Assembly (NCBI GenBank): GCA_963805625.1
Contig: CAWDVE010000010.1
Coordinates: 576,001 to 640,000, forward strand
Origin: an uncultured Candidatus Rokubacteria bacterium
Lineage (GTDB): Bacteria; Methylomirabilota; Methylomirabilia; Rokubacteriales; DASRDR01
Direction: 5' to 3'
DNA length: 64,000 bases
Positions 18,854 to 36,123 of this stretch are shown here, one piece after another; positions within the stretch are counted from its first letter, which is position 1, and each line of letters starts with the position of its first letter. Position numbers and translations under genes: made by a program. The notes below the pieces were generated by a model that was given only the letters and a program-made list of their open reading frames with translations, did not search any database and was not told the origin of the DNA.

Positions 18854-19093
18854 CTACTCCCCTGATACCCGGGTGATCAACTGCGTGCGTACCTGGCCAT
18901 CACAGCAGCGCTGCCGTCGCCAGGATCTCGCCTTCGGCGAGGAGCGGAAACTCGCCGTCTGCCCGAGGACGACGTAGCCGCTCAGGGGGTGCGCGTTCAG
19001 CCGGGGGAGGTTGGACGCCAGCCCATCGTGGGCCACGGCCCTGCCCCGGAAGGGAGTCAGCACGGGCGGATACACGCCCTGGAGTACTGTCAT
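18854..19093 (-). pseudogene. 5' remnant of a DapA/NAL-family aldolase
   Basis: MTVLQGVYPPVLTPF...LASNLPRLNAHPLSGYVVLG then frameshift to DGEFPLL (GxxGE motif); remaining ~230 codons absent. Confidence 0.8.
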
Positions 19094-19218: not shown

Positions 19219-19255
19219 CTGAAACGGGCCCGCTGAGGGCCCGGCGTCCCGGCGC

Positions 19256-20017
19256 TCAGCGTGATGGTTTGCGCGAGGCACGCTCCGGACGGTCGTCGAC
19301 GCGCCCCACGACGAGGCGTTCGACTCCCACCAGATGGGCCAGCATGGCCTTCTCGGCCCTCCGGGCGTCCTGGGCGATCACGGCCGCCAGGATGTGCCGG
19401 TGGTCGCCATGGGAGCGGACGGGCCGACCTGGCTGCGACAGGGATTCCTCGCGGCTCTGGGCCAACAGGTCCATCAAGGTGGTGACGATCCGTGTGATGG
19501 CGCGGTTGTGGGTCGAGTGCACGAGCGCCGTGTGGAACGCCGCGTCCTGGGCGAGGCCCGTCCGCCCGGCCGCCACCTCGGCGCTCTGCTCGTCGAGGAT
19601 CCGCGCCATGTCCGCCACCTCCTCCTGACTGGCCCGACGGGCGGCGAGCGCGGCGATGGGCGGCTCCAGGAGGCGGCGGGCCTCGTAGAGGTCCGCGATC
19701 GTCTCGCGCTGCGCCAGGATCACCAGCGCGAGCGGCTCGACCAGGGCCTCGACGGAGATCTCCCGGACGAAGGCACCCTCCCCGGGGCGGATCCCGATCA
19801 GGCCCCGGCTCTCGAGGGCCCGCATCGCTTCCCGGACGGACGTCCGGCTCACCCGGAACCGCTCCGCGAGGTCCCGTTCCGGAGGGAGCCGGTCCCCGGA
19901 CTTCAGGTGCCCGTCCGCGATCAGCAGCCGGATCTGCCGGACGATCTCCTCGTAGATCCGGGTGCTCCGCACCGGCTCCAGGCTCGGCCACTCGACGTCG
20001 GAGCGGCGGCGTGCCAC
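19256..20017 (-). CDS. FadR/GntR-family transcriptional regulator (LldR/GlcC/PdhR-like)
   Basis: GDRLPPERDLAERFRVSRTSVREA wHTH plus FCD domain (DAAFH, HRHIL); GTG 20017 with GGAGG RBS. Confidence 0.93.
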   Translation of the reverse strand: MARRRSDVEWPSLEPVRSTRIYEEIVRQIRLLIADGHLKSGDRLPPERDLAERFRVSRTSVREAMRALESRGLIGIRPGEGAFVREISVEALVEPLALVILAQRETIADLYEARRLLEPPIAALAARRASQEEVADMARILDEQSAEVAAGRTGLAQDAAFHTALVHSTHNRAITRIVTTLMDLLAQSREESLSQPGRPVRSHGDHRHILAAVIAQDARRAEKAMLAHLVGVERLVVGRVDDRPERASRKPSR

Positions 20018-20033
20018 TCGGTTCCTCCGCGCC

Positions 20034-20762
20034 TCAGTGGCCAGATCCGGCGCGGGCGGCGACGACGGCTCGCCCGCGGTGGCGCGCCCACGCGCGGCCG
20101 ATGACGATGACGATGACCGCGAGTGACACCTGGACGGCGCGCTGCACCACCGGGTTCGGATGGCCTCCGAGCCAACCCTGCGCGACACGATCCCCGAGGA
20201 TCATCTCGCCGGCTACCCACCCGAGGATGGCCGCGCCGACGTCGACGATCCACCAGAACCGGGCCATTAGCCGGGCCAAGAGGCCGCTCCCCCAGATCAC
20301 GAGCGGGATGGACAGTCCCACGCCGAAGACGACCAGCACCATGTCGCCGTGGGCCGCTCCCGAGATCGCCAGGACGTTGTCGAGGCTCATGATCACGTCG
20401 GCAAGGACGATGATCCAGATCGCCTCGAGGAGCGTCGTGCCCTGGCGGACCGTCTCATGCTCCTCCGCCCTGTGGCCTTCCTGCGACAGGAGCTTGACGG
20501 CGATCCACAGCAGGACCGCCCCGCCTGACGCCTGGAGGAGAGGGACTCGCAGCAGAACACTGATGATCGCGATGAAGACGATGCGCAGGCCGACGGCGCC
20601 GACCGTTCCCCACAGGCGTCCCTGCCACTGCTGCCTCGCGGGCAGCTTCCGCACGGCCAAGGCGATGACGAGCGCGTTGTCGCCGGCCAGGGTGAGGTCG
20701 AGGATGACGATCTGGATCCACCGGAACCAGAATTCGGCGGTCGCCACCTCCGTCCAGTTCAC
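20034..20762 (-). CDS. TerC/YjbE-family membrane protein
   Basis: DLTLAGDNALVIALA and ADVIMSLDNVLAI motifs. Confidence 0.9.
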   Translation of the reverse strand: MNWTEVATAEFWFRWIQIVILDLTLAGDNALVIALAVRKLPARQQWQGRLWGTVGAVGLRIVFIAIISVLLRVPLLQASGGAVLLWIAVKLLSQEGHRAEEHETVRQGTTLLEAIWIIVLADVIMSLDNVLAISGAAHGDMVLVVFGVGLSIPLVIWGSGLLARLMARFWWIVDVGAAILGWVAGEMILGDRVAQGWLGGHPNPVVQRAVQVSLAVIVIVIGRAWARHRGRAVVAARAGSGH

Positions 20763-21571
20763 CGGACCGGCCTCCGGAACACCTTGACCTCGCTGGACAC
20801 CTGGATCACGCCCGATGCCTCGCGAGCGACGGCGAGCGCCCCCTCGCGCTCGGCCTCCGATCCGACCACGCCCGCCAGACGCACGTGCCCCTCCGCCACC
20901 TGGATGTCCACATCCACCTGGGCCGTCGCCGCCGTCGCCTTCATGATCGCCCGAACGCGCGCCGCGAGGGCCCGGTCGGACAGCATCTGCCGCGAGGCCC
21001 GCGTGGGCTGAAACTCCGCCGAGGCCACCAGCCCGAGGACCTGCTCGACGGCCGTCATCACCCCGATGGTCTCCGTGTTGATGACGAGATCGTACAGGAG
21101 GGGGTCGGTCCAGTCGACATCGAACATCTGTCGCATGCGCGCCCGGACGCCGTCGTCGTACGCCGCGATCCGGTGCGTCGCCTCGGCATCGTCGATCCCG
21201 TGCCGCTCCATCACACGCCGCGCCCGGACCGCCGGCGGCGCGCAGACGCGCACGCGCGCCGCGTGCGAGATGCCGCGGAGGAAGAGCGTCGACCAGCGGC
21301 CGACGAGGACCACGCGATCCTGGAGAGCCGCCTCGAGCACGGCCGCCTCCAGGTAGGCGCGGTAGCGGACTCGCGGCCGGCGCAGGCGCTCGACCAGACC
21401 GGGAGCCTGCTCCACGATGCCGACGAGGCGCGACTCCCGAACCCGGTACTCTCTGGCCGCGTCCCGCAGGATGTCGTTCCGCAGGAACTGGTAACCGAGG
21501 CGACGCGCGACTTCGTGTGCGATGAGGGAGCCGAGGCTCCCCATCTCCCGCGTCATCGCGACCACCGGCAT
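20759..21571 (-). CDS. Cytidylate-kinase-like protein with C-terminal BON domain
   Basis: VVAMTREMGSLG, VLVGRWS, DPLLYDLVINT; C-term GHVRLAGVV...GVIQVSSEV. Confidence 0.85.
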   Translation of the reverse strand: MPVVAMTREMGSLGSLIAHEVARRLGYQFLRNDILRDAAREYRVRESRLVGIVEQAPGLVERLRRPRVRYRAYLEAAVLEAALQDRVVLVGRWSTLFLRGISHAARVRVCAPPAVRARRVMERHGIDDAEATHRIAAYDDGVRARMRQMFDVDWTDPLLYDLVINTETIGVMTAVEQVLGLVASAEFQPTRASRQMLSDRALAARVRAIMKATAATAQVDVDIQVAEGHVRLAGVVGSEAEREGALAVAREASGVIQVSSEVKVFRRPVR

Positions 21572-21587
21572 CCCGAGGCTCCTCCGC

Positions 21588-23102
21588 TCAGGTGCGGGTG
21601 GCCTCGGACGGTCTCAGCCGAGGACGCCGCATCAGCGGACCGAGAACGGGCAGCAGGAACAGCATGAGCGCCGCGGCGGTGATGACGGCGGCAATGGGGC
21701 GTGTCGCGAAGATGAGCACGGAGCCCTGCGACATGATCAAGCTCTGCCGGAGCGCGTTCTCCGCCATGTCGCCCAGCACCAAGGCGAGCACCAGGGGTGC
21801 CAGCGGATAGTCGAGCTTCTTGAAGACATACCCCAGGACCCCGAAACCCAGCATGTACCAGACGTCGAGCATGCTGTTGCTCACCGTGTAGGCGCCGATC
21901 GCGCAGACGAACACGATCAGCGGGACCAGGATGGCGAAGGGGATGCGGAGGATCGCCGCGAACGCCGGCACGCAGAAGAGCACCATGAGCACGCCGATGA
22001 CGTTCCCGGTGTACATGCTCGCGATCAGCCCCCACACGAACTCGGGCTTCTCGACGAACAGCATGGGCCCGGGCTGGAGGCCCCAGATGAGGAGCCCGCC
22101 GAGCATCACCGCCGCGGTCGGGGACCCGGGGATGCCCAGCGTGATCATGGGCAGCATCGCGGCGACTCCCGCCGCGTGAGCCGCCGTCTCCGGGGCCACG
22201 ACCCCTTCCAGCACGCCCGTGCCGAACTTCTCCGGGTGCCGCGAGAAGCGGCGGGCGAAGCCGTAGCTCATGAACGAAGCGGGGGTGGCGCCGCCCGGCT
22301 TGAACCCCATCCAGAAGCCGATCATCGAGCTCCGGAGGAACGTCCGCCAGTACCCGGCCAACTCGCGCCACGTCGCCACCATGTCCCGGAACCGCACCCG
22401 GGGCGTCACCCCGCGGAACCGGAGCCCTTCCTCCACGGTGAGGAAGATCTCCCCCAGCCCGAACAGGCCGATCACCGCGACGATGAACGACACGCCGCGC
22501 ATGAGCTCGATCGAGCCGAAGGTGAGCCGGAGCCGCCCGGTGACGACGTCGAGGCCGATGGCTCCCAGGATGAAGCCGAGCACGATCGACGCGAACGACT
22601 TGACCGGGCTGCCGCCTCCCAGTCCGATGAAGCTCGAGAAGGTCAGGAGCTGGATGGCGAAGAATTCCGGCGGTCCGAACTTGAGCGCGAGCTCTGCCAA
22701 GGGCTGGGCGAAGAAGGAGACGAGCACGATGGCGAACAGCGCGCCGACGAAGGACGACGTGAATGCCGCGGTCAGCGCCTGAGCGCCCTTCCCCTGCTTC
22801 GCGAGCGGGTATCCGTCGAGCGTCGTCGCCACCGACCAAGGCTCGCCGGGGATGTTGAACAGGATCGACGTGATCGCTCCACCGAAGAGCGCGCCCCAGT
22901 AGATGGAGGTGAGCAGGATAATCGCGGACGTCGGCGACATCGTGAACGTCAGCGGGAGCAGGATGGCCACGCCGTTCGCCCCGCCCAGCCCCGGCAGGAC
23001 GCCGATGATGGTGCCGAGTACGATCCCGATCACCGCCATGACGAGGTTGAACGGCATGATCGCGACCTGGAATCCGAGTAAGAGGTGCTCGATGCCTGCC
23101 AT
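21588..23102 (-). CDS. tctA: Tripartite tricarboxylate transporter large permease
   Basis: GVLPGLG, GGAITSILFNIPG, GVVAPETA, TLGIPGS; ATG 23102. Confidence 0.95.
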   Translation of the reverse strand: MAGIEHLLLGFQVAIMPFNLVMAVIGIVLGTIIGVLPGLGGANGVAILLPLTFTMSPTSAIILLTSIYWGALFGGAITSILFNIPGEPWSVATTLDGYPLAKQGKGAQALTAAFTSSFVGALFAIVLVSFFAQPLAELALKFGPPEFFAIQLLTFSSFIGLGGGSPVKSFASIVLGFILGAIGLDVVTGRLRLTFGSIELMRGVSFIVAVIGLFGLGEIFLTVEEGLRFRGVTPRVRFRDMVATWRELAGYWRTFLRSSMIGFWMGFKPGGATPASFMSYGFARRFSRHPEKFGTGVLEGVVAPETAAHAAGVAAMLPMITLGIPGSPTAAVMLGGLLIWGLQPGPMLFVEKPEFVWGLIASMYTGNVIGVLMVLFCVPAFAAILRIPFAILVPLIVFVCAIGAYTVSNSMLDVWYMLGFGVLGYVFKKLDYPLAPLVLALVLGDMAENALRQSLIMSQGSVLIFATRPIAAVITAAALMLFLLPVLGPLMRRPRLRPSEATRT

Positions 23103-23109
23103 CGCGCCC

Positions 23110-23574
23110 TCAGTAGCCGAGCCGGGCCTCGAGGGGCCCCTTCGGCAGAGGCACCAGGAACCAGACCTCGAAGATGAGGAAGGTCGCCACGGGGACCCCG
23201 ATCGCCACGAGGACAATCGTCACCCAGCGGTGTCGGCCGATCCACCGCATGTAGGCTGCCAGGTAGAGCGCGCCGCTCAAGTACAGCCCGAGGCCGTGCG
23301 TGAGGACTATCATCGCGACCGCAGGAAAGAAGACCGTCGCCACCGAGCGGAGCTGGCCGGGTCCCACGAACAGCGCGACGTCGTGAGTCCGTCGGACCGC
23401 ACCGGCGACGACGAGCACGGCCGACACGAGAAGGGCCACCCCCAGGTAAAACACGAAGAAGCCGGGCTGCGGGCCGTCGGTACTCCAACCGATGCCGAGC
23501 CGCAGGCCCTCGACGAGGACGACGATCGCGACGACCGCCAGGAAGACCCCACAGACGATGTCAGCCGTGCGCAC
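23110..23574 (-). CDS. tctB: Tripartite tricarboxylate transporter small permease
   Basis: GPQPGFF, TM helices, FLVPLPKG; position between tctC and tctA. Confidence 0.9.
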   Translation of the reverse strand: MRTADIVCGVFLAVVAIVVLVEGLRLGIGWSTDGPQPGFFVFYLGVALLVSAVLVVAGAVRRTHDVALFVGPGQLRSVATVFFPAVAMIVLTHGLGLYLSGALYLAAYMRWIGRHRWVTIVLVAIGVPVATFLIFEVWFLVPLPKGPLEARLGY

Positions 23575-23682
23575 GCGGTCTGTCTCCTCGATGGTCGTCC
23601 GGGTCGCGGACCGGGGTCGGCGTCGGCGCGCTGGCCGCTGCGCGGCACCTCCTCGACGGCCGGAGGCGCCGCGCCGGCGAGG

Positions 23683-24684
23683 CTACTTCAGCAGGCCGCC
23701 CTTGCTCATGAGGTCCTTGTGCAGCGACTCCGCGCTCTCCAGCCACTTGACGAACTCCGGTCCGGTCTGCCACGCAGGGTTCAGGGCGCCTTGCGCGAGA
23801 TACTCTTTGAACTCCGGCGTCTCGTAGACCTTCTGCAGCATCCCCTGGTAGTAGGCGACCGCCTCCGCCGGCATGCCCGGCGCCCCGAAGATGCCGCGCA
23901 GCATCAGGTAGCTGATGTCCGTCCCCAGGGCCTCCTTGATCGTCGGGATGTCTCCCCAGCCCGGCGCGGCCAGGCGCTTCGTGTCGAACACTCCCAGCGG
24001 GCGCACCCGGCCCGCCTTCAGATGCCCGACGCACTCGATCGGATTGTTCACCGTCGAATCCACATGGTTGCCGACCAGGTTGACACAGACTTCCCCACCG
24101 CCCTTGAACGGCACGTAGATGAACTTGATCCCCAGCGCCTGCTCGAGCTGAATCGTGATGATCTGGTCTTCCTGCGCGGTCCCGGTACCGCCCATCTTCA
24201 TCTTGCCGTCACCACCCGAGGCTTCCTTAACCGCAGTGATGTAATCCTTGGCGATCTTGAAGTCCTTCTTGTCGGGGCGGTCGGTGTTGACCCACAGGAT
24301 GAACTCGTCGAGCGCGAGCCGGGCGACGGGCGTCAGGTCCTTCCAGTTGAACGGCACCCCGGTGTGGAGAGGGGTGGTGAAGAGGTTCGACAGTGTGATG
24401 ATGATCGTGTGGGCGTCGCCGGACTTGGCCTTCACGTACGTGAAGCCCTCGGCACCGGCCCCGCCGGCCTTGTTCACCACGACGAGCGGCCGCGGCGACA
24501 GCTTGTACTTCTCCACGAGCGGGGCGATCAAGCGCGCCATCTGGTCGGCGCCGCCGCCCGTCCCTGCGGGAACGATGAATTCCACCGGTTTGGTCGGCTC
24601 CCACGCCTCCGCGGAGCCGGCAAGGCCTCCCAGTATGGTGAGTCCCAGGACCACGAGGGCGGCGGTCATCACTCGATGAGCCAT
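23683..24684 (-). CDS. tctC: Tripartite tricarboxylate transporter substrate-binding protein (Bug/TctC)
   Basis: Signal peptide; FIVPAGTGGGADQMAR, NKAGGAG, YVPFKGGGE. Confidence 0.93.
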   Translation of the reverse strand: MAHRVMTAALVVLGLTILGGLAGSAEAWEPTKPVEFIVPAGTGGGADQMARLIAPLVEKYKLSPRPLVVVNKAGGAGAEGFTYVKAKSGDAHTIIITLSNLFTTPLHTGVPFNWKDLTPVARLALDEFILWVNTDRPDKKDFKIAKDYITAVKEASGGDGKMKMGGTGTAQEDQIITIQLEQALGIKFIYVPFKGGGEVCVNLVGNHVDSTVNNPIECVGHLKAGRVRPLGVFDTKRLAAPGWGDIPTIKEALGTDISYLMLRGIFGAPGMPAEAVAYYQGMLQKVYETPEFKEYLAQGALNPAWQTGPEFVKWLESAESLHKDLMSKGGLLK

Positions 24685-24699
24685 GGAGCCTCCTTCTTT

Positions 24700-24734
24700 G
24701 GAGGTTCTTGGAAGTTCAAGGAGGTTCTTGGAAG
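24700..24734. repeat. Two 15-bp direct repeats in the tctC leader
   Basis: GGAGGTTCTTGGAAG at 24700-24714 and 24720-24734. Confidence 0.85.
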
Positions 24735-24760
24735 GTCTGGGGAGAAGCTGGCCAAGGCCC

Positions 24761-24808
24761 GAGATGCAAGAAGGGCCGCCAGCAGCCTGGCGGCCCTTCT
24801 TGCATCTC
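24761..24808. terminator. Perfect 22-bp stem, 4-nt loop hairpin after the oxidoreductase beta gene
   Basis: GAGATGCAAGAAGGGCCGCCAG-CAGC-CTGGCGGCCCTTCTTGCATCTC; terminator role inferred. Confidence 0.7.
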
Positions 24809-24847
24809 CGACGACGACGGCAGTGTCATCGCCTCCGCGTCACGCCG

Positions 24848-25873
24848 CTACGTTGGTAGCGGAATCTGCGAGGGCGCCTTGCGGAACGACACGACGCCCG
24901 GGATCTCCCAATTCTCCCACATCTCGTCGACCTTCGCCTGGAAGTACGCCAGGTCCCCCTCGGTGAAGTGCGCGAAGCGGCCCTGCTTGAGCAGGTACTC
25001 CCGGACGGGCTTCCGCTTCCGCCCTTCCACGATGGACTTGGTCTTACCGTAGTACTTCACGACCCCATCCTCGACCTCGTACAACGGAAAGATCCCGGTC
25101 TCCACCGCCAGCTCGCCGAGCTCGTGGGAAAGCATCGGGTCGTAGTCCCACCCCTTCGGGCACGGATCGAGCGAGTGGATGAACGTCGGCCCGCCGATGG
25201 TCAGCGCCCGGCGCACCTTGTTCATCATCTCCACGGCGTAGGAGGCGCACACGGTGGCCACGTAGCGGCACTCCGGATGACCGGCGGCCAGCATCCCGGC
25301 CATGTTCTTCTTCCAGCGGGTGTGGATGATCCGCTTGACGGCTCCGGGCGGGCTGAACGTCGTGTGAGCGCCGTACGGCGTCATCCCCGACAGCTGGATG
25401 TCGGTGTTGGCGTAGGACTCGTTGTCGTAGAGCAGGATCAGGGAGTTGTACTCCTTGTGGGTCAAGGTCGCGGAGATCGCGCCGAGCCCCATGTCCGCCC
25501 CACCCCCATCGCCGCAGAACGCGATGACGTTGATCGGCTCGGACTTCATCTTCCCCTTCTTCATGAGCGACTTGAGGCCTGCCGCCGTCCCGAGCGCCGC
25601 CGATCCCGACGAGCCGAGCTGCGTGTGCATCCATGGCACCACCCACGGCGTGGTGTAGTAGGTGGTGTTCGCGACGTACATGCACCCGGTCGAGCCCAGC
25701 ACGATCGTGCGCGGCCCGGACGCCTTCACCATCAGCTTCATCACGAGGGCCGACTCGCACCCCTGGCACGTCCGGTGGCCCGAGGTGAAGTACTCCTCGA
25801 TGGTGACCTTCTTGACGCCCTTGAAGGGCGACAGCATCTGCGTGTCGTTCGTGAACGTCGTGGTATCTGCCAT
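24848..25873 (-). CDS. 2-oxoacid oxidoreductase beta (TPP-binding) subunit, oxalate oxidoreductase-like
   Basis: GHRTCQGC, TGCMYVANT, GDGG, YDNESYANT, PCPKGW. Confidence 0.9.
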   Translation of the reverse strand: MADTTTFTNDTQMLSPFKGVKKVTIEEYFTSGHRTCQGCESALVMKLMVKASGPRTIVLGSTGCMYVANTTYYTTPWVVPWMHTQLGSSGSAALGTAAGLKSLMKKGKMKSEPINVIAFCGDGGGADMGLGAISATLTHKEYNSLILLYDNESYANTDIQLSGMTPYGAHTTFSPPGAVKRIIHTRWKKNMAGMLAAGHPECRYVATVCASYAVEMMNKVRRALTIGGPTFIHSLDPCPKGWDYDPMLSHELGELAVETGIFPLYEVEDGVVKYYGKTKSIVEGRKRKPVREYLLKQGRFAHFTEGDLAYFQAKVDEMWENWEIPGVVSFRKAPSQIPLPT

Positions 25874-25887
25874 GGTCTTCCTCCCCG

Positions 25888-27123
25888 TCACTCGCGCACA
25901 CCGAGCCAGTAGGTCGCCCGCTCCGTCCGGCCCGCGTTCGCCGCGGCGTAGCAGATGTCCACCGCCTTGTTCACGTCCTCGAGCGTGACCTCACGCCCGC
26001 CGAGGCCGCAGATGAAGCCGATCAGCGGGGGTCGATGTTCCGCGTTGTAGAGCGCCGCCCGGACCTCGTTGGCGACGACGCCGGAGCCGAACGGCGATCC
26101 GAACGAATAGTCCCGGTCGATGACCCCGATCGCCTTCGCGTGCCGGAGCGCCTTCGCCAGCTGCTCGTACGGGAATGGCCGGAACCACCGCAGCCGGATC
26201 AGGCCAACCTTCTTCCCTTGCTTGCGCAGGCTCCGGATCGCCACCTTGACCGGCAGCGATAGGGTCCCCATCCCCATCAAGATGATCTCGGCGTCCTCCG
26301 TCATGTACTCCTCGAACCAGGGGTTCTCCGGCCCGCGCCCGAATGTGTGACGGAAGTCGGCGTACACCTCCTCGATGACGCTGTACGCGCGCTTTATCGC
26401 CTCGTCGTTCTGGCGCCGGATCTCGATCACCCAGTCCTCGTTCACCTGCGGCGCCACCGTGATCGGGTTGTCCGGGTGGAGCAACAGGTCCCCCCGGTTG
26501 TACGCTGGCAGGAACCGCTGCACGCGCTCTTGCGGAGGCACCCGCGTGATCGTCTGGGAGTGCGTCAGGAAGGCGCCGTCGGCCGAGATCGCGATCGGCA
26601 GGAGGATCCGCCGATCCTCCGCCACGCGATATGCGATGAGCGTCGTGTCGAGGGCTTCCTGCGCCGTGTCGATCCATACGAGAAGCCACCCGAGATCACG
26701 TACGGACAGGGCGTCGTTGTGCTCCACCCCGAACGCGCCCGGATCGTCCAGCGCGCGGTTCCCAACGAGTGCCACCAAGGGAACGCGGAGGGCGGGGGTG
26801 ACAGTGATCGCCTCCATCGCGTACATCCAGCCCACGCCCGAGGACCCGCAGAAGACGCGCGCGCCCACGGTGGACGCGTGCTTGACGATCTCGAACTGGC
26901 TGTGCTCGCCCTCGGCGACGATGTACTCGGCGACGAGCTTGCCGTTGGCGATCTTCTTCGCGATCGCCTGCATCACCGTGTCGTAGGGCCGGATCGGATA
27001 GGCGGTGACGACGTCGATGTCGGCCAGCGTGAGGGCCTCGGCAACAGCCTCGCTGCCCGAGATCAGCATCTCCGTCTCGTCGAGGACCGCCGCACCCCCG
27101 GCGGGCTTGGTCGCGACTGCCAT
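25888..27123 (-). CDS. 2-oxoacid oxidoreductase alpha subunit, oxalate oxidoreductase-like
   Basis: YPIRPY, EGEH, GSSGVG, RALDDPG, RPFP, GLGG; ATG 27123 best spaced from GAGGAGG. Confidence 0.9.
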   Translation of the reverse strand: MAVATKPAGGAAVLDETEMLISGSEAVAEALTLADIDVVTAYPIRPYDTVMQAIAKKIANGKLVAEYIVAEGEHSQFEIVKHASTVGARVFCGSSGVGWMYAMEAITVTPALRVPLVALVGNRALDDPGAFGVEHNDALSVRDLGWLLVWIDTAQEALDTTLIAYRVAEDRRILLPIAISADGAFLTHSQTITRVPPQERVQRFLPAYNRGDLLLHPDNPITVAPQVNEDWVIEIRRQNDEAIKRAYSVIEEVYADFRHTFGRGPENPWFEEYMTEDAEIILMGMGTLSLPVKVAIRSLRKQGKKVGLIRLRWFRPFPYEQLAKALRHAKAIGVIDRDYSFGSPFGSGVVANEVRAALYNAEHRPPLIGFICGLGGREVTLEDVNKAVDICYAAANAGRTERATYWLGVRE

Positions 27124-27157
27124 GGACATCCTCCTCGTCTGTTGGCGTCCGTCGGGG

Positions 27158-28435
27158 TTAGGCGCCCGGCGCTTCGGGCACGCCGGTCACGATCGACGCC
27201 GTGTCGTGGATGTGTCGCTTCGGCTGGACACCCTTGCTCTTCGCGTTCTCGCCGGGAATCCCCTCGGGCACGGGCATCCCGCCCAGCTCGATCTCGCCCT
27301 GGGAGAGCTCCTCCTCGTACTGGCCCCGGTAGCGGAAGCCGTGCGAGCGCACGGTCGTGACCTTGTCGCGGATCTTCTCGGTGGACCAGACGCGGTAGGC
27401 GTCCTTGTCCTGGCGCCACATCTCCCACTGGCTCTGGTTGTCGTCGAAGGCGGCCTCGTTCACCATCGTGATGCAGTCCTTCACGGGGCAGACCGCCTCG
27501 CACACCCCGCACCCGCAGCACGCCTCCATGTTGGCGTCGTACAGCCCGTCCGGCGTTACGTCGAACACGCTGTCCGGGCACTGGATCCAGCAGAGCGTGC
27601 ACTTGACGCAGGTGTCGAAGTTCACGACCGGTCGCATCGTGCGGGTCGTGAACTTCTTGAAGTAGGGATTCCGCTCGGGCCGGTACCCCTTCCCGCCCTC
27701 GACCGGCTTGCCGACGGGAATGGCCGGGATGGTCACCCCTTCGCGCATCTCCCACCACTTCGGCATCTCGAAGGAGAACGGGACCTCGTCATTGCCTTCG
27801 TTCATCTGGATGCGCCGCCCGTCGACTCGCTCGTAGGCCTTGCGCGCGGACTCGGCCTTCAGCTCCGAGCCCCATTCGGCCTCCCGGATGGCCGCGCACA
27901 CCGCCTCGATGTCGAGGAACCCCGACGCGATCTTGGCCAGGGCTCCGAGGAGACGCGCCTCCGTGTGGTCTTCCTTGAAGACCCAGAGACCCGAGAACGA
28001 GGCTTTCGCAGGCAGGATCCAGAGGTGGTACGGCGAATCCTTCTTGTGGATGTCCCGGAGGAGCTCGCTCGGCGACCGCGTGGACGTCACGAGCAGATGC
28101 CCGCCCGAGAGGAGGAGACGGTTGATCGGCTGGAGCCCGTACCACGCCCACGACTCCACACCCTTGCAGAGGGTGTCATCCACGCAGATCGTGACGTGGA
28201 GCTCCTTCGGCTGGTAGCGAGCCATGTGCTGCTCGAGCTCCTCCTTGGTGTCCGCCACGATCGCGAAGTCCTTGGCCGGGATCCCGTTTCGCTGCGGGCT
28301 GTCGCCGTACCGTCCGAACGCGATCCCCCATCGCCCGGCCTTCCGGGACGAGAGCACGATCCCGCGGGTGATCCGCGCGGCGAGGTTCTTCTGGAAGATG
28401 CCCCGGTAGACCACCTCGACGGTGAGATGCGCCAT
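27158..28435 (-). CDS. 2-oxoacid oxidoreductase fused gamma/delta subunit (2x[4Fe-4S])
   Basis: YRGIFQK, YGDSPQRNGIP, CVKCTLCWIQCP and CCGCGVCEAVCP; ATG 28435 with AGGAGG. Confidence 0.88.
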   Translation of the reverse strand: MAHLTVEVVYRGIFQKNLAARITRGIVLSSRKAGRWGIAFGRYGDSPQRNGIPAKDFAIVADTKEELEQHMARYQPKELHVTICVDDTLCKGVESWAWYGLQPINRLLLSGGHLLVTSTRSPSELLRDIHKKDSPYHLWILPAKASFSGLWVFKEDHTEARLLGALAKIASGFLDIEAVCAAIREAEWGSELKAESARKAYERVDGRRIQMNEGNDEVPFSFEMPKWWEMREGVTIPAIPVGKPVEGGKGYRPERNPYFKKFTTRTMRPVVNFDTCVKCTLCWIQCPDSVFDVTPDGLYDANMEACCGCGVCEAVCPVKDCITMVNEAAFDDNQSQWEMWRQDKDAYRVWSTEKIRDKVTTVRSHGFRYRGQYEEELSQGEIELGGMPVPEGIPGENAKSKGVQPKRHIHDTASIVTGVPEAPGA

Positions 28436-28484
28436 GCACGGCCTCCTGCGGGCCCCGACGAGCACGGGACCCTGCTAGCGGTAT

Positions 28485-28535
28485 AGTGGTCCGACCTCTC
28501 AGCCAAAACCTACGGGAGAACACCACACCTGTCAA
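28485..28535 (-). promoter_or_regulatory. sigma70 promoter plus FadR/GntR-type operator
   Basis: TTGACA(28535-28530)-17nt-TAGGTT(28512-28507); pseudo-palindrome AGTGGTCCGACCTCT at 28485-28499. Confidence 0.7.
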
Positions 28536-28633
28536 CAGGCTTGGAACCGTGTTGGAACCGAGTCTCGCCGCCGCTCCGCGCTCGAGGTCCAGACGCCCCA
28601 AGGGAGCGGCAGGGGCCCGTGACGCCGGTCCGT

Positions 28634-31756: not shown

Positions 31757-33178
31757 TCATCCACCCTCGGCCCCGGTCGGGCGCGAGCGGCGCACCAGGA
31801 CGAGCGCGAGCGCAGCCAGCCCGGTAGCCACCACAACGGTAGCCGGGTTCGGCCGGTAGAGGTACCCCTGCATCCACGCGAAGGCCGGGTTCCGCAGGAG
31901 AAGGGTCCTCGGCACGAGCTCGAGCCGAAGCGGCCCGGTCTCCTCGCCGGCCGGCTCCCAGCTCTCGCCGTCCGGATCGGGCGTGATCGATCCGGGTTGG
32001 CTCGTGAAGTAGAGGGCGTACCGCGGCACCACGACCCGAGCCAAGCGAGGCGGTCGGAGCTGCACGGCGAGCGGTATCTCGATCCCCGCCCGTCCATCGA
32101 GAGCGACCGTGATCAGGACATCGTCGCCAGTCGCGGCCGGTCCGACCTCGAGCTGCTCGAACGCGAGCGGGCGGAAGGTCGCGTGGACCGGGCGTCGAGC
32201 CGCGACCTCGGCCCATGCTCGGAAAAGCGTCACGCTCCGCGGAGCCGGCTCGAGCTCGAGCGATGCCCCGGGTGGAACCGGGCGCGCGGCCTCGCCCCCC
32301 GCCGCGTAGGCGAGGCTGACGGGCGCGCCGGATGGCGCCGCGCCGCGAAATGCGCGCAGCTCGACGCGGAGCAGCCGGACCCCGGGCGCACCGGTCACCG
32401 CGTAGCGCACCTCCCGCCGAAGCTCCGTCCGGCTGTCGTCGTAGCGCGCGGTGGCGGTCGTGGCCGCCATCGGCACCCCGCCTCCCAGGACGCGTACCAG
32501 TGCTTCGACGGCGGCGCTGGCGGCCGCGAGATCCTCCCGTACGGGGCGGAGCGACACGTGGGCCATGGCGGCGGGATCGGCCGCCCGCAGGACGGAAGCC
32601 GCCTCGCTCCCGTCTCTGGCAGTCCCGAGCCGCCGGTCCAGCTCGACCAGGTAGGCCGAAACGGCCGCGCGCCGAGCCTCGAGGTCGCGGAATTCCGCGG
32701 CGGCCAGGGTGCGGGCCAGCCGCCGCGTAGCCGCCTCCACGGCCGCCGCCTCGCGCGGCGCGTCGCCGCGCAGCGGGTTGAGCCGCCGCGAGAGCGCGAT
32801 CATGGCTCCGGCGCGCTGCTCGAGCTCCGATCCGGTCAGGCGGAGCTCGTCCCGCGTGAGCTCGGCGAGCCGGGCTCGGGCGGCCAGCAGGTGTGGATCT
32901 CCCGTGACGGTCGAGAACGTCAGGCGCGGCTCACCCCATACCGGGACCCAGCCCCTCTCGTACGAGACGGGGATCGGGGGCGCGAACCACCCGAGCCGGC
33001 CACCCCAGACCAGCAGAGCCGCGCTCGCCAGGAGCACGAGTACCGCGGCCATGCGCAGCCGGCGCCGCAGGAGCAGCACGGCCACGAGCGCCACCACCCA
33101 GAGCACCCCAAGGGCCAGATCCAGGGCGCTCGCGGTCAGCACGAGGCCCAGGAGGGCCGCGACGGCGACCGTCCTCAC
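31757..33178 (-). CDS. Hypothetical membrane protein
   Basis: N-terminal TM helices, helical then beta-rich region, C-terminal TM; GTG overlaps Smr stop. Confidence 0.7.
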   Translation of the reverse strand: MRTVAVAALLGLVLTASALDLALGVLWVVALVAVLLLRRRLRMAAVLVLLASAALLVWGGRLGWFAPPIPVSYERGWVPVWGEPRLTFSTVTGDPHLLAARARLAELTRDELRLTGSELEQRAGAMIALSRRLNPLRGDAPREAAAVEAATRRLARTLAAAEFRDLEARRAAVSAYLVELDRRLGTARDGSEAASVLRAADPAAMAHVSLRPVREDLAAASAAVEALVRVLGGGVPMAATTATARYDDSRTELRREVRYAVTGAPGVRLLRVELRAFRGAAPSGAPVSLAYAAGGEAARPVPPGASLELEPAPRSVTLFRAWAEVAARRPVHATFRPLAFEQLEVGPAATGDDVLITVALDGRAGIEIPLAVQLRPPRLARVVVPRYALYFTSQPGSITPDPDGESWEPAGEETGPLRLELVPRTLLLRNPAFAWMQGYLYRPNPATVVVATGLAALALVLVRRSRPTGAEGG

Positions 33179-34269: not shown

Positions 34270-36123
34270 GTGGCCACCGTCTCCGTGACGTTTCTGCCGG
34301 TTCGCCGGACGGTCGCCGTCGAGCCCGGCACCGTCCTGCTCCGCGCGGCGCACGCCCAGGGAGTGGACGTCACGGCCACCTGCGGCGGGCGCGGCCGATG
34401 CACGTCCTGTCGGGTGAAGGTCGTCGAGGGCGTGGCCCCACCCGGCACGATCGGCGACCAGCTTCAGCTCGGCAACGACCTGGTGCGTGAGGGATACCGC
34501 CTCTCCTGCCAGCTGGTGCCGATGGAGCCGCTCGTCGTCCAGGTCGCGCCACCCCTCGACGAGCGCGCGTTCCAGATCCTGGGCGTCGAGCCGGGTGCGG
34601 TCGTCCGAGCGCAGGTGGCCATGGACGCCGGGATCCGCAAGAAGGTGGTCCGGGTCGAGCTGCCGCAGGAGGAGCACCACCAGACCTCGGATCTGGAGCA
34701 GCTCGCGCTGGCGGCCGGCCTCGCGCCCGAGGACGTCCCCCTCGACGTGATCCGCACGCTCCCGGCCACGCTCCGCGAGGGCAAGGGCGAGGTGACGGTC
34801 GTAACGTTCCTGGGCGCGCCCCTCGGCGTCGAGCGCGGCGACACGACCGCGATGGCGTTCGGGGTCGCGATCGACGTCGGCACGACGAGCGTGGTCACCA
34901 CGCTCCTCGAGCTCGCCTCGGGCGAGGTGATGGCCTCGGTCTCGAGCCTGAACCCCCAGGCGACGTTCGGTGGCGACCTGATGTCCCGGATCGCCTTCGC
35001 CCAGTGGAACCCGTCGAATCTGCGGAAGCTCCAGAGTCGCATCATCGGGCTCCTGAACCAGCAGGTCGACGAGCTCCTGGGACGCACCGGCGTGCTGCCC
35101 CAGTGGATCTACAAGGTGACCGTCGTCGGCAACACGTGCATGCATCACGTGCTGCTGGGCATCGATCCCACGTACGTGGGCCTGTCGCCCTATTCAGCCG
35201 TCGTCCGGCATCCGCTCGTGCTGCCGGCGCGGACCCTCCATCTCAAGGTGAACCCCGAGGCGCGCGTCTGCTTCCTGCCCATCGTGGCCGGATTCGTCGG
35301 CGCGGACGCCGTGGGCGCGGTCCTCGCCACCCGCCTCGACGAGAGCGTCAGCGTGCGTGCCGTTGTCGACATCGGGACCAACGGGGAGGTGGTGATGGGA
35401 ACGCGGGAGCGGCTGATGGCGTGCTCCGCCCCGGCAGGCCCGGCGCTCGAGGGCGCGCAGATCCGTCACGGGATGCGGGGAGCCGTCGGGGCCATCGACC
35501 GGGTCTGGGTCGAGGACGGGGACCTGCGCTTCCACGTGATCGGCGATGGTGCGCCCCAGGGCATCTGCGGCTCGGGGCTCATCGACGCGGTCGCGGCCGC
35601 GCTCGACATCGGTCTGGTCGACTGGACCGGGCTCATCCAGATCGAGCGGCGCGACCGTTTCCCCGCGGCGCTGGCGGCACGGCTCGCCGAGCGCGGCGAG
35701 GAGCGCCTTCTGATCCTCGCGCCCCCGGGGAAGGCCGCAGGCGGCGGGGAGATCGTCCTGACGCAGGACGACGTTCGACAGCTCCAGCTCGCCAAGGGCG
35801 CGATCGGCGGCGGGATCAGGATGCTCCAGCACGTCCTGGGGGCCCCGGACGAGGCCCTCACGGACCTGATGCTGGCGGGCGGGTTCGGCAACTACCTCTC
35901 GATCCGGAGCGCCGTGCGGATCGGACTGATTCCTCCGCTGGCGCTCGATCGCATCCGCTACGTGGGCAACGCCGCCGCGCTGGGGGCCCAGCTCGCGCTC
36001 GTTTCCGAGGTGGAGCGCGCCCGCGCGGGGCGGCTCGCCCGCTCGATCGAGCACCTGTCGCTCGCGACCCACCCCGACTTCCAGGACCTGTTCGTGGACG
36101 CCATGAACTTCCCGAAGGCGTGA
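34270..36123 (+). CDS. ASKHA-domain reductive activator of corrinoid proteins (DUF4445/RACE) with N-terminal [2Fe-2S]
   Basis: CGGRGRCTSC...RLSCQ, DVGTT, NPQATFGGDLMSRI, DIGTNGE, AGPALEG, GICGSG, QLAKGAI. Confidence 0.93.
   Translation: MATVSVTFLPVRRTVAVEPGTVLLRAAHAQGVDVTATCGGRGRCTSCRVKVVEGVAPPGTIGDQLQLGNDLVREGYRLSCQLVPMEPLVVQVAPPLDERAFQILGVEPGAVVRAQVAMDAGIRKKVVRVELPQEEHHQTSDLEQLALAAGLAPEDVPLDVIRTLPATLREGKGEVTVVTFLGAPLGVERGDTTAMAFGVAIDVGTTSVVTTLLELASGEVMASVSSLNPQATFGGDLMSRIAFAQWNPSNLRKLQSRIIGLLNQQVDELLGRTGVLPQWIYKVTVVGNTCMHHVLLGIDPTYVGLSPYSAVVRHPLVLPARTLHLKVNPEARVCFLPIVAGFVGADAVGAVLATRLDESVSVRAVVDIGTNGEVVMGTRERLMACSAPAGPALEGAQIRHGMRGAVGAIDRVWVEDGDLRFHVIGDGAPQGICGSGLIDAVAAALDIGLVDWTGLIQIERRDRFPAALAARLAERGEERLLILAPPGKAAGGGEIVLTQDDVRQLQLAKGAIGGGIRMLQHVLGAPDEALTDLMLAGGFGNYLSIRSAVRIGLIPPLALDRIRYVGNAAALGAQLALVSEVERARAGRLARSIEHLSLATHPDFQDLFVDAMNFPKA

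Follow-up and report, generated by a model that had tools for sequence, protein, structure and literature searches.

INTRODUCTION

In the excerpts of the literature cited here, the oxalate oxidoreductase (OOR) of Moorella thermoacetica is described as an enzyme of anaerobes (PMC12654022), in which Arg31 and Asp116 are important for a bait-and-switch mechanism (PMC5020499). Arg109 of the alpha subunit and Asn143 of the beta subunit are likewise given there as OOR features (PMC5020499, PMC12654022). The related pyruvate ferredoxin oxidoreductase (PFOR) binds coenzyme A (CoA) through its domain III, again according to an excerpt (PMC13768988). Here we analyse a probable nine-gene operon that pairs an OOR-like enzyme with a tripartite tricarboxylate transporter (TTT) of the TctCBA type. 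It lies on a 64,000-nucleotide stretch of the genome of an uncultured Candidatus Rokubacteria bacterium (assembly GCA_963805625.1, contig CAWDVE010000010.1, positions 576,001 to 640,000), which we call the window.

Our analysis suggests, with a probability of about 0.78, that this operon imports oxalate via TctCBA and oxidises it independently of CoA to two CO2, under predicted FadR control. A module for the uptake and oxidation of a small acid had been proposed in a previous sequence-only reading of the window. The present data support that proposal, and the gene context narrows its list of substrates towards oxalate.

RESULTS

Organization of the operon

The nine open reading frames are intact and co-oriented on the minus strand, from window position 28435 to 19256. 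Pfam and NCBIfam place their products in the expected families (Fer4, POR_N/PFOR_II, TPP_enzyme_C, TctC, TctB, TctA, Cytidylate_kin2 with BON, TerC, and GntR with FCD). The gene order of the sequence-only reading is confirmed. The features are as follows.

27158-28435, minus strand: fused gamma/delta subunit, with domain III and a 2x[4Fe-4S] domain (Pfam/NCBIfam; best PDB match 5c4i_B)
25888-27129, minus strand: alpha subunit (NF045791, alignment, Foldseek)
24848-25873, minus strand: beta subunit, with thiamine pyrophosphate (TPP) motif GDG..N and proximal [4Fe-4S] cysteines (NF045792, alignment)
23683-24684, minus strand: TctC, a periplasmic binding protein from a subfamily linked to oxalate genes (PF03401, tree)
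23110-23574, minus strand: TctB small membrane subunit (PF07331)
21588-23102, minus strand: TctA large membrane subunit (PF01970, 499 bits)
20759-21571, minus strand: cytidylate-kinase-like domain with BON, here cmk-BON (PF13189 and PF04972)
20034-20762, minus strand: TerC/YjbE-family metal-transport membrane protein (TIGR03717, 215 bits against a cut-off of 135; slot analysis)
19256-20017, minus strand: FadR-subfamily GntR regulator with helix-turn-helix and FCD domains (PF00392 and PF07729)
28507-28535, minus strand: putative sigma70-type promoter (sequence; TTGAC kept in relatives)
28480-28497, minus strand: predicted FadR-type operator (conservation in upstream regions)
24761-24808, minus strand: perfect 22-bp hairpin in the beta-tctC gap (z = -5.9)
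19225-19243, minus strand: intrinsic-terminator-like site ending the operon, weak by itself (4 found in the region against 2.9 expected by chance)

The three tct genes are adjacent, and all three of their Pfam families score above cut-off. The fadR gene starts with GTG and has a GGAGG site upstream. Intergenic gaps are at most 30 nt, except for beta-tctC (163 nt) and tctC-tctB (108 nt). Because the gaps are short and a terminator-like site follows fadR, we infer that the nine genes form a single transcript. RNA contigs from soil and rhizosphere (four runs, 1488-2644 per run, at least 85% likeness) span all nine genes; they come from relatives and have no silent-stretch control, and thus do not show transcription. 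The closest named relatives of the locus belong to Methylomirabilota/Rokubacteria, at 90-98% identity.

The enzyme resembles Moorella OOR

In the PDB, each of the three enzyme subunits matches the Moorella OOR structure 5C4I best (E = 1e-98, 6e-87 and 3e-14), and the alpha subunit is 41% identical to that of Moorella. The AlphaFold model of alpha (pLDDT 86) was matched by Foldseek to 5c4i_A with a TM score of 0.90. With gamma/delta, the top eight Foldseek matches were all OOR chains, from a low-confidence model (mean pLDDT 60). The three-subunit layout with fused gamma/delta and the motifs YPIRP, GCMYVANT and YDNESYANT, on which the earlier assignment had been built, are all present.

Alignment to 5c4i shows that the alpha subunit keeps Arg31 (Arg47 in the window), Glu59 (Glu75), Arg109 (Arg125), Phe117 and Gln211, and that Asn156 of beta corresponds to Moorella Asn143. 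We take Glu59, Phe117 and Gln211 to be active-site residues of the Moorella enzyme. The YPIRP motif, which holds Arg47, occurs in 67/67 readable alphas. Three aspartates are specific to the clade: alpha 50 (YPIRPYD, 67/67), alpha 129 (72/72) and beta 158 (ANTDIQ, 81/82), the last replacing Moorella Gly145. The counterpart of Moorella gamma Glu154 is Glu155, in a part of the alignment that is of low confidence (model pLDDT <50); the residue there is E or D in 60/60 readable proteins.

The CoA loop of domain III has the motif GxGGQG/GxGxDG. All 66 gamma/delta proteins lack this P-loop, and in the window RGIFQK stands in place of GxGGQG. A TPP motif and three [4Fe-4S] sites could be located across the three subunits; of the cysteines in the two delta clusters, all eight are invariant (15/15 aligned proteins), and the cysteines of the beta cluster are present.

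Behind the ferredoxin domain, gamma/delta carries a conserved C-terminal extension of ~45 aa that the Moorella chain does not have. A search of the ESM Atlas with this tail returned nothing above 0.80, and AlphaFold placed neither the apo ferredoxin domain nor the tail in the gamma/delta model. A protective role has been ascribed to domain VII of D. africanus PFOR in an excerpt of the literature (PMC13768988), and we speculate, by analogy, that the tail might act likewise.

Phylogeny and distribution of the enzyme

A quick maximum-likelihood tree was built from 87 alphas; it contained no Moorella or other named sequence, and motif and NCBIfam score served to recognise the OOR clade. A branch with SH-aLRT support of 100 divides the YPIRP proteins from 43 rows of the YPITP/YPISP type. 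The enzyme therefore does not group with YPITP-type PFOR/VOR; a grouping with canonical PFOR would have spoken against the sequence-only reading. On the YPIRP side there are three groups, namely an Asp116 type (support 100), the window clade (100) and a small DDPGNFA group. The last is a third YPIRP-type clade formed by P0132 and P0271, with the loop DDPGNFAMEW, and is sister to the window clade (support 96).

Locus counts refer to the best 80 of ~1300 estimated matching stretches, 76 of them with enough downstream DNA. The 80 loci carry the labels Methylomirabilota, Armatimonadota/Sysuimicrobiota, Myxococcota and Acidobacteriota. Across the host's order (145 genomes, at least 80% complete), beta was found in 122/145, some of them as fragments, tctC in 111/145, and oxc above cut-off in 1/145. 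The order and locus tallies include three genomes marked unpublished (G061, G173 and G174). A further 24 genomes of the order (L219, L220 and 22 others) hold a group of oxc-like TPP enzymes scoring ~510-537 bits against the TIGR03254 cut-off of 739. A comparison of beta with a plasmid collection gave no match.

The phylum also holds a second gene set, which retains Asp116 and scores above the OOR cut-offs (261, 623 and 593 bits at locus L107). These Moorella-type OOR operons of Methylomirabilota (L105-L112, L121, L122 and L233-L235) have split gamma and delta genes. Between fadR and gamma they carry a gene for a CDC48-like AAA ATPase, and their transporter genes are followed by one that resembles an NAD-dependent epimerase.

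The transporter is linked to oxalate genes

Directly after the enzyme, tct genes are found in 62 of the 76 loci and an MFS gene in nine, with neither in the remaining five. Five of the nine MFS proteins were scanned, and 5/5 pass the cut-off of TIGR04259, the oxalate/formate antiporter family. At the Moorella-type OOR genes the same tctC follows beta directly in 9/10 loci, and in 3/3 more, nearly all from one genus; these loci often share terC, cmk-BON, fadR and the operator with the window clade. The tctCBA and fadR genes are co-conserved with the enzyme across several phyla; a lack of co-conservation of the tct genes would have spoken against the sequence-only reading.

We also scanned metagenomes for TctC, using as the query an Azospirillum homologue that is 56% identical to the window TctC. 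This gave 80 loci, 31 of them of at least 6 kb. Among these 31, oxc, frc or oxlT was present in 21, and these or related formate/oxalyl-CoA genes in 26. When representatives were checked, 9/11 full-length TPP enzymes proved to be oxc, with frc confirmed in 4/4 and oxlT in 1/1. In a tree, the oxc/frc-linked, OOR-linked and window TctCs group together with support 96, and 11 other TctCs fall outside this clade; the window TctC is 58% identical to that of the oxc-frc cluster L171. Its best PDB match is 4x9t (E 2e-29), and it has no close solved structure.

At L069 and L071 the next genes behind the enzyme are those for an acyl-CoA ligase and a panE2-like protein, and similar pairs stand beside TctC at L177 and L201; the pair presumably resembles the oxalate-assimilation genes of Methylobacterium. 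Taken together, the gene context makes oxalate the likely substrate.

On plasmids of cultured Azospirillum and Skermanella (L123 and L124), TctC of the same subfamily is part of a tctCBA-terC-CBS/BON-GntR module; no oxc or frc lies within 10 kb of either. At L138, L141, L164 and L166 two uncharacterised proteins recur as partners of oxc/frc, a cNMP-binding protein of 202 aa and a formyltransferase-like one of 310 aa.

Accessory genes

The terC gene is present in 30/80 loci and cmk-BON in 9/80. Both are optional, which was overlooked when the window was first read, and both are tied to the transporter, not to the enzyme. A cation-transport gene is found near tctA in 42/56 tct loci, compared with 0/12 loci that lack tct, and in 14/31 TctC loci of the metagenome set. 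The slot is filled by TerC (31), NhaD/ArsB/CitMHS-like proteins (6), type IIA Ca-ATPase-like proteins (5) and Ca/Na antiporter-like proteins (2), with the ATPases and antiporters giving their best scores, below cut-off, against Ca2+ models. The loci with this slot include kin and do not count as independent; even so, its occupants come from four unrelated families.

As these interchangeable cation-transport genes are tied to the transporter, they suggest that a metal-oxalate complex is taken up and that the metal is then exported. Both halves have precedents in excerpts of the literature: citrate binding or uptake by TctCBA is enhanced by Ca2+, Mn2+ or Mg2+ (PMC5812351), and Bacillus TerC proteins export Mn (PMC10550928). 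The cation-exporter slot, and an accessory module common to Moorella-type OOR and Oxc/Frc clusters, are absent from the literature excerpts consulted. Plasmid neighbours of terC were for the most part uninformative: L126 is part of a TRAP cluster, and clustering revealed no recurring oxalate-gene cluster shared by L127-L129.

The cmk-like domain scores 46 bits against the TIGR02173 cut-off of 102. Its N-terminus reads MTREMGSLGS and has no GK[ST], so that the Walker A lysine is missing. In one frc cluster, the gene behind tctA encodes a cmk-BON homologue with 38% identity; in Azospirillum, a CBS-BON gene takes up a comparable position. Our guess is that cmk-BON might be a nucleotide-sensing regulator of the transporter, which is the weakest step of our explanation. 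The fadR gene is present in 56/59 loci with at least 6.5 kb downstream, and outside Rokubacteria it stands at the head of the operon.

Promoter, operator and hairpin

The promoter proposed in the sequence-only reading consists of TTGACA at 28535-28530, a 17-nt spacer and TAGGTT at 28512-28507. Its sequence is present and the -35 box is perfect; the -10 box has only 3/6 consensus bases, and a promoter scanner run on the region did not call the element. TTGAC precedes the operator in 10/10 aligned promoters, which were hand-picked.

The predicted FadR-type operator reads AGGTCGGACCA(CTA)TACC at 28497-28480, just downstream of the -10 box, and has the general form (A/T)GGTCNGACCA-N3-(G/T)ACC. Its core, GGTCNGACC, is conserved in 39/62 upstream regions of the window and its relatives, against 61/6337 background windows (~1%). 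The same operator occurs at the Moorella-type OOR loci L111, L112 and L122. Elsewhere in the genome, at C4:183897, another operator-like site precedes the gene for an ABC binding protein but is oriented in the opposite sense.

The hairpin between beta and tctC, also overlooked previously, is a single copy in the genome. Stems of at least 12 bp are found in 35/62 beta-tctC gaps and in 7/200 control windows. It likely steps down or stabilises the mRNA.

Host genome and neighbouring genes

A profile search of the host's own genome found no oxc, frc or oxlT above cut-off. The genome encodes heme-copper oxidases, two pyruvate dehydrogenase (PDH) E1 alpha genes and a formate dehydrogenase, both above cut-off, and two other 2-oxoacid:ferredoxin oxidoreductases (OFORs). 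A free-standing ferredoxin of 88 aa (G000:C4:189397-189663) is a candidate electron acceptor.

Beyond the operon, the minus strand carries a DapA-like gene remnant at 18854-19093 (MTVLQGVYPP..., with a stop after 79 codons), where close relatives (L002) have an intact 294-aa gene; in other Rokubacteria PPDK, too, stands behind fadR. At 31757-33178, also on the minus strand, is a 473-aa membrane protein with no Pfam match that is kept upstream in close relatives, and on the plus strand at 34270-36123 there is a RACo-type (ASKHA/2Fe-2S) activator gene.

DISCUSSION

Weighing the evidence

A number of observations count against assigning CoA-independent oxalate oxidation to this operon. Although the best NCBIfam scores of all three subunits are to the OOR models, they fall below every cut-off (gamma/delta NF045790, 79 of 230 bits; alpha NF045791, 378 of 500; beta NF045792, 344 of 590). 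The position of Moorella Asp116 is occupied by Ala132, and by Ala in 72/72 readable alphas (RALDDPGAFG against RTLDPPGDFG), a replacement that the sequence-only reading overlooked; AlphaFold left the alpha switch loop unplaced, with pLDDT <50 at 126-137. Most of the 80 loci are Rokubacterial and not independent, the oxc-linked TctCs were retrieved via the Azospirillum homologue and not via the window TctC, and 3/5 scanned MFS proteins also pass the L-lactate transporter cut-off (NF049980), with lower scores. No dedicated electron acceptor lies within the operon, and its downstream neighbours in many Rokubacteria are PPDK (36/59 loci) and ilvB (35/59). Lastly, the window clade and the Asp116-keeping clade are both present in 5/5 genomes examined, all of one genus and four of them picked for two hits; their standing side by side may mean that they have different substrates.

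With Ala in place of Asp116 and every subunit below its NCBIfam cut-off, the enzyme, judged by its sequence, appears to resemble OOR in its working yet to lie outside the OOR family. The match to Moorella OOR rather than to ordinary PFOR thus stands as far as the best PDB relative and the separation from YPITP types are concerned. It does not extend to membership, as the enzyme belongs to a sister clade that lacks Asp116 and is not a member of the OOR equivalog.

The changed active-site loop also invites the most durable of the alternatives, that the same CoA-independent chemistry acts on a related small acid such as oxamate, mesoxalate, glyoxylate or an oxalate monoester. We regard this as unlikely, while allowing it more weight than any other rival. 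The exchange of Asp116 for Ala together with three new conserved aspartates would fit a change of substrate, as would the retention of both clades in five genomes and the third YPIRP clade (P0132, DDPGNFA), in which the family is seen to diversify. Against this, two unrelated oxalate-linked transporter types alternate at one position after the enzyme, the window TctC falls within a subclade of OOR- and oxc-linked TctCs, and the acyl-CoA ligase and panE2-like pairs described above accompany the enzyme and TctC alike.

The loss of Asp116 could alternatively mean that oxalate is split non-oxidatively into formate and CO2, feeding formate dehydrogenase and an antiporter. The oxalate/formate antiporter family genes after beta in nine loci and the formate dehydrogenase of the genome would agree with this, but the invariant delta cluster cysteines (15/15) and the beta cluster cysteines would not, and no fdh gene cluster was seen to recur beside the 80 loci. 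We consider this route very improbable.

Least probable of all is an ordinary CoA-dependent pyruvate or 2-oxoacid oxidoreductase with transporter and regulator as a pyruvate module, for which speak the JGI and NCBI label 'pyruvate ferredoxin oxidoreductase', an alpha score of 343 bits for PorA_Arch against 378 for OOR alpha, the downstream PPDK and ilvB and an operator that presumably resembles PdhR-type sites, and against which speak YPIRP in place of YPITP, the missing CoA P-loop, the separate tree position, the absence of PPDK and ilvB from non-Rokubacterial loci, and a genome that already has PDH and two other OFORs.

Proposed mechanism and implications

If the operon does serve the import and CoA-independent oxidation of oxalate, the FadR repressor would be released from the operator beside the -10 box by oxalate or a product of oxalate. 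TctC would bind oxalate that is probably complexed with Ca2+ or Mn2+, and import would proceed through TctAB, with TerC exporting the freed metal. Oxalate would then add to TPP and lose CO2, giving two CO2 in total and requiring no CoA, and one of alpha Asp50, alpha Asp129 and beta Asp158 may take over the role of Asp116. The two electrons would pass along the three clusters to ferredoxin and from there into respiration.

OOR has been characterised from one acetogen, and the oxalate reading would place a variant of it near the core of an abundant soil order without canonical oxc. Since the order lacks canonical oxc, surveys based on frc/oxc would overlook Rokubacteria, and entries named 'pyruvate ferredoxin oxidoreductase' would be mislabelled. 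The clade would also be a natural test of the need for Asp116 in TPP-dependent oxalate chemistry and a possibly oxygen-tolerant source of low-potential electrons, and it would supply a testable ligand for an orphan TTT subfamily found widely among Proteobacteria.

More tentatively, and at somewhat short of even odds, we suggest that O2-respiring soil bacteria of several uncultured phyla rely on a second OOR that differs in mechanism, with no Asp116, a relocated acid and a C-terminal arm that maybe shields the clusters from O2. This enzyme would be fed by the first oxalate-specific binding-protein transporter, taking up Ca or Mn oxalate and coupled to a metal exporter, and the soil oxalate-carbonate pathway would have in Rokubacteria a major group of oxalate degraders that has been overlooked. 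A literature search found no description of the enzyme clade or of an oxalate-binding TTT, though primary OOR papers or their supplements may list homologues; oxalate has 0 occurrences in the 2018 TTT review and in the TphC paper.

Comparison with known systems

The closest described system is the OOR of Moorella thermoacetica (EC 1.2.7.10; PDB 5C4I/5EXD/5EXE; NF045790-NF045792), with which the window enzyme shares three subunits, a fused gamma/delta, TPP with three [4Fe-4S] clusters and the lack of a CoA loop. It differs in having Ala for Asp116, new aspartates at alpha 50, alpha 129 and beta 158 and the C-terminal extension of gamma/delta, and in forming a separate clade. Moreover, Moorella-type loci in this phylum carry a CDC48-like ATPase gene whereas the window operon does not, and the window host differs from Moorella in encoding heme-copper oxidases and PDH.

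With the Oxc/Frc oxalate clusters of Proteobacteria (TIGR03254, TIGR03253 and TIGR04259) the window shares the TctCBA subfamily as well as TerC and cmk-BON; in some cases these clusters also have the antiporter. Their route is CoA-dependent and yields formate, and it is absent from the window genome. Among TTT systems (TctCBA of Salmonella and Corynebacterium, SlcHFG, TphC, AdpC and the Bug proteins) the tctC-tctB-tctA layout is shared, with a variant pincer motif, PAGTGGGAD, in the window, whose TctC belongs to a separate subfamily. The four-subunit PFOR/VOR enzymes (PorABCD, such as Methanosarcina 9BT4) contain the same domains, and their fold matches the window alpha with a TM score of 0.88. 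They have YPITP, depend on CoA and keep gamma and delta separate, and the window enzyme scores lower against them.

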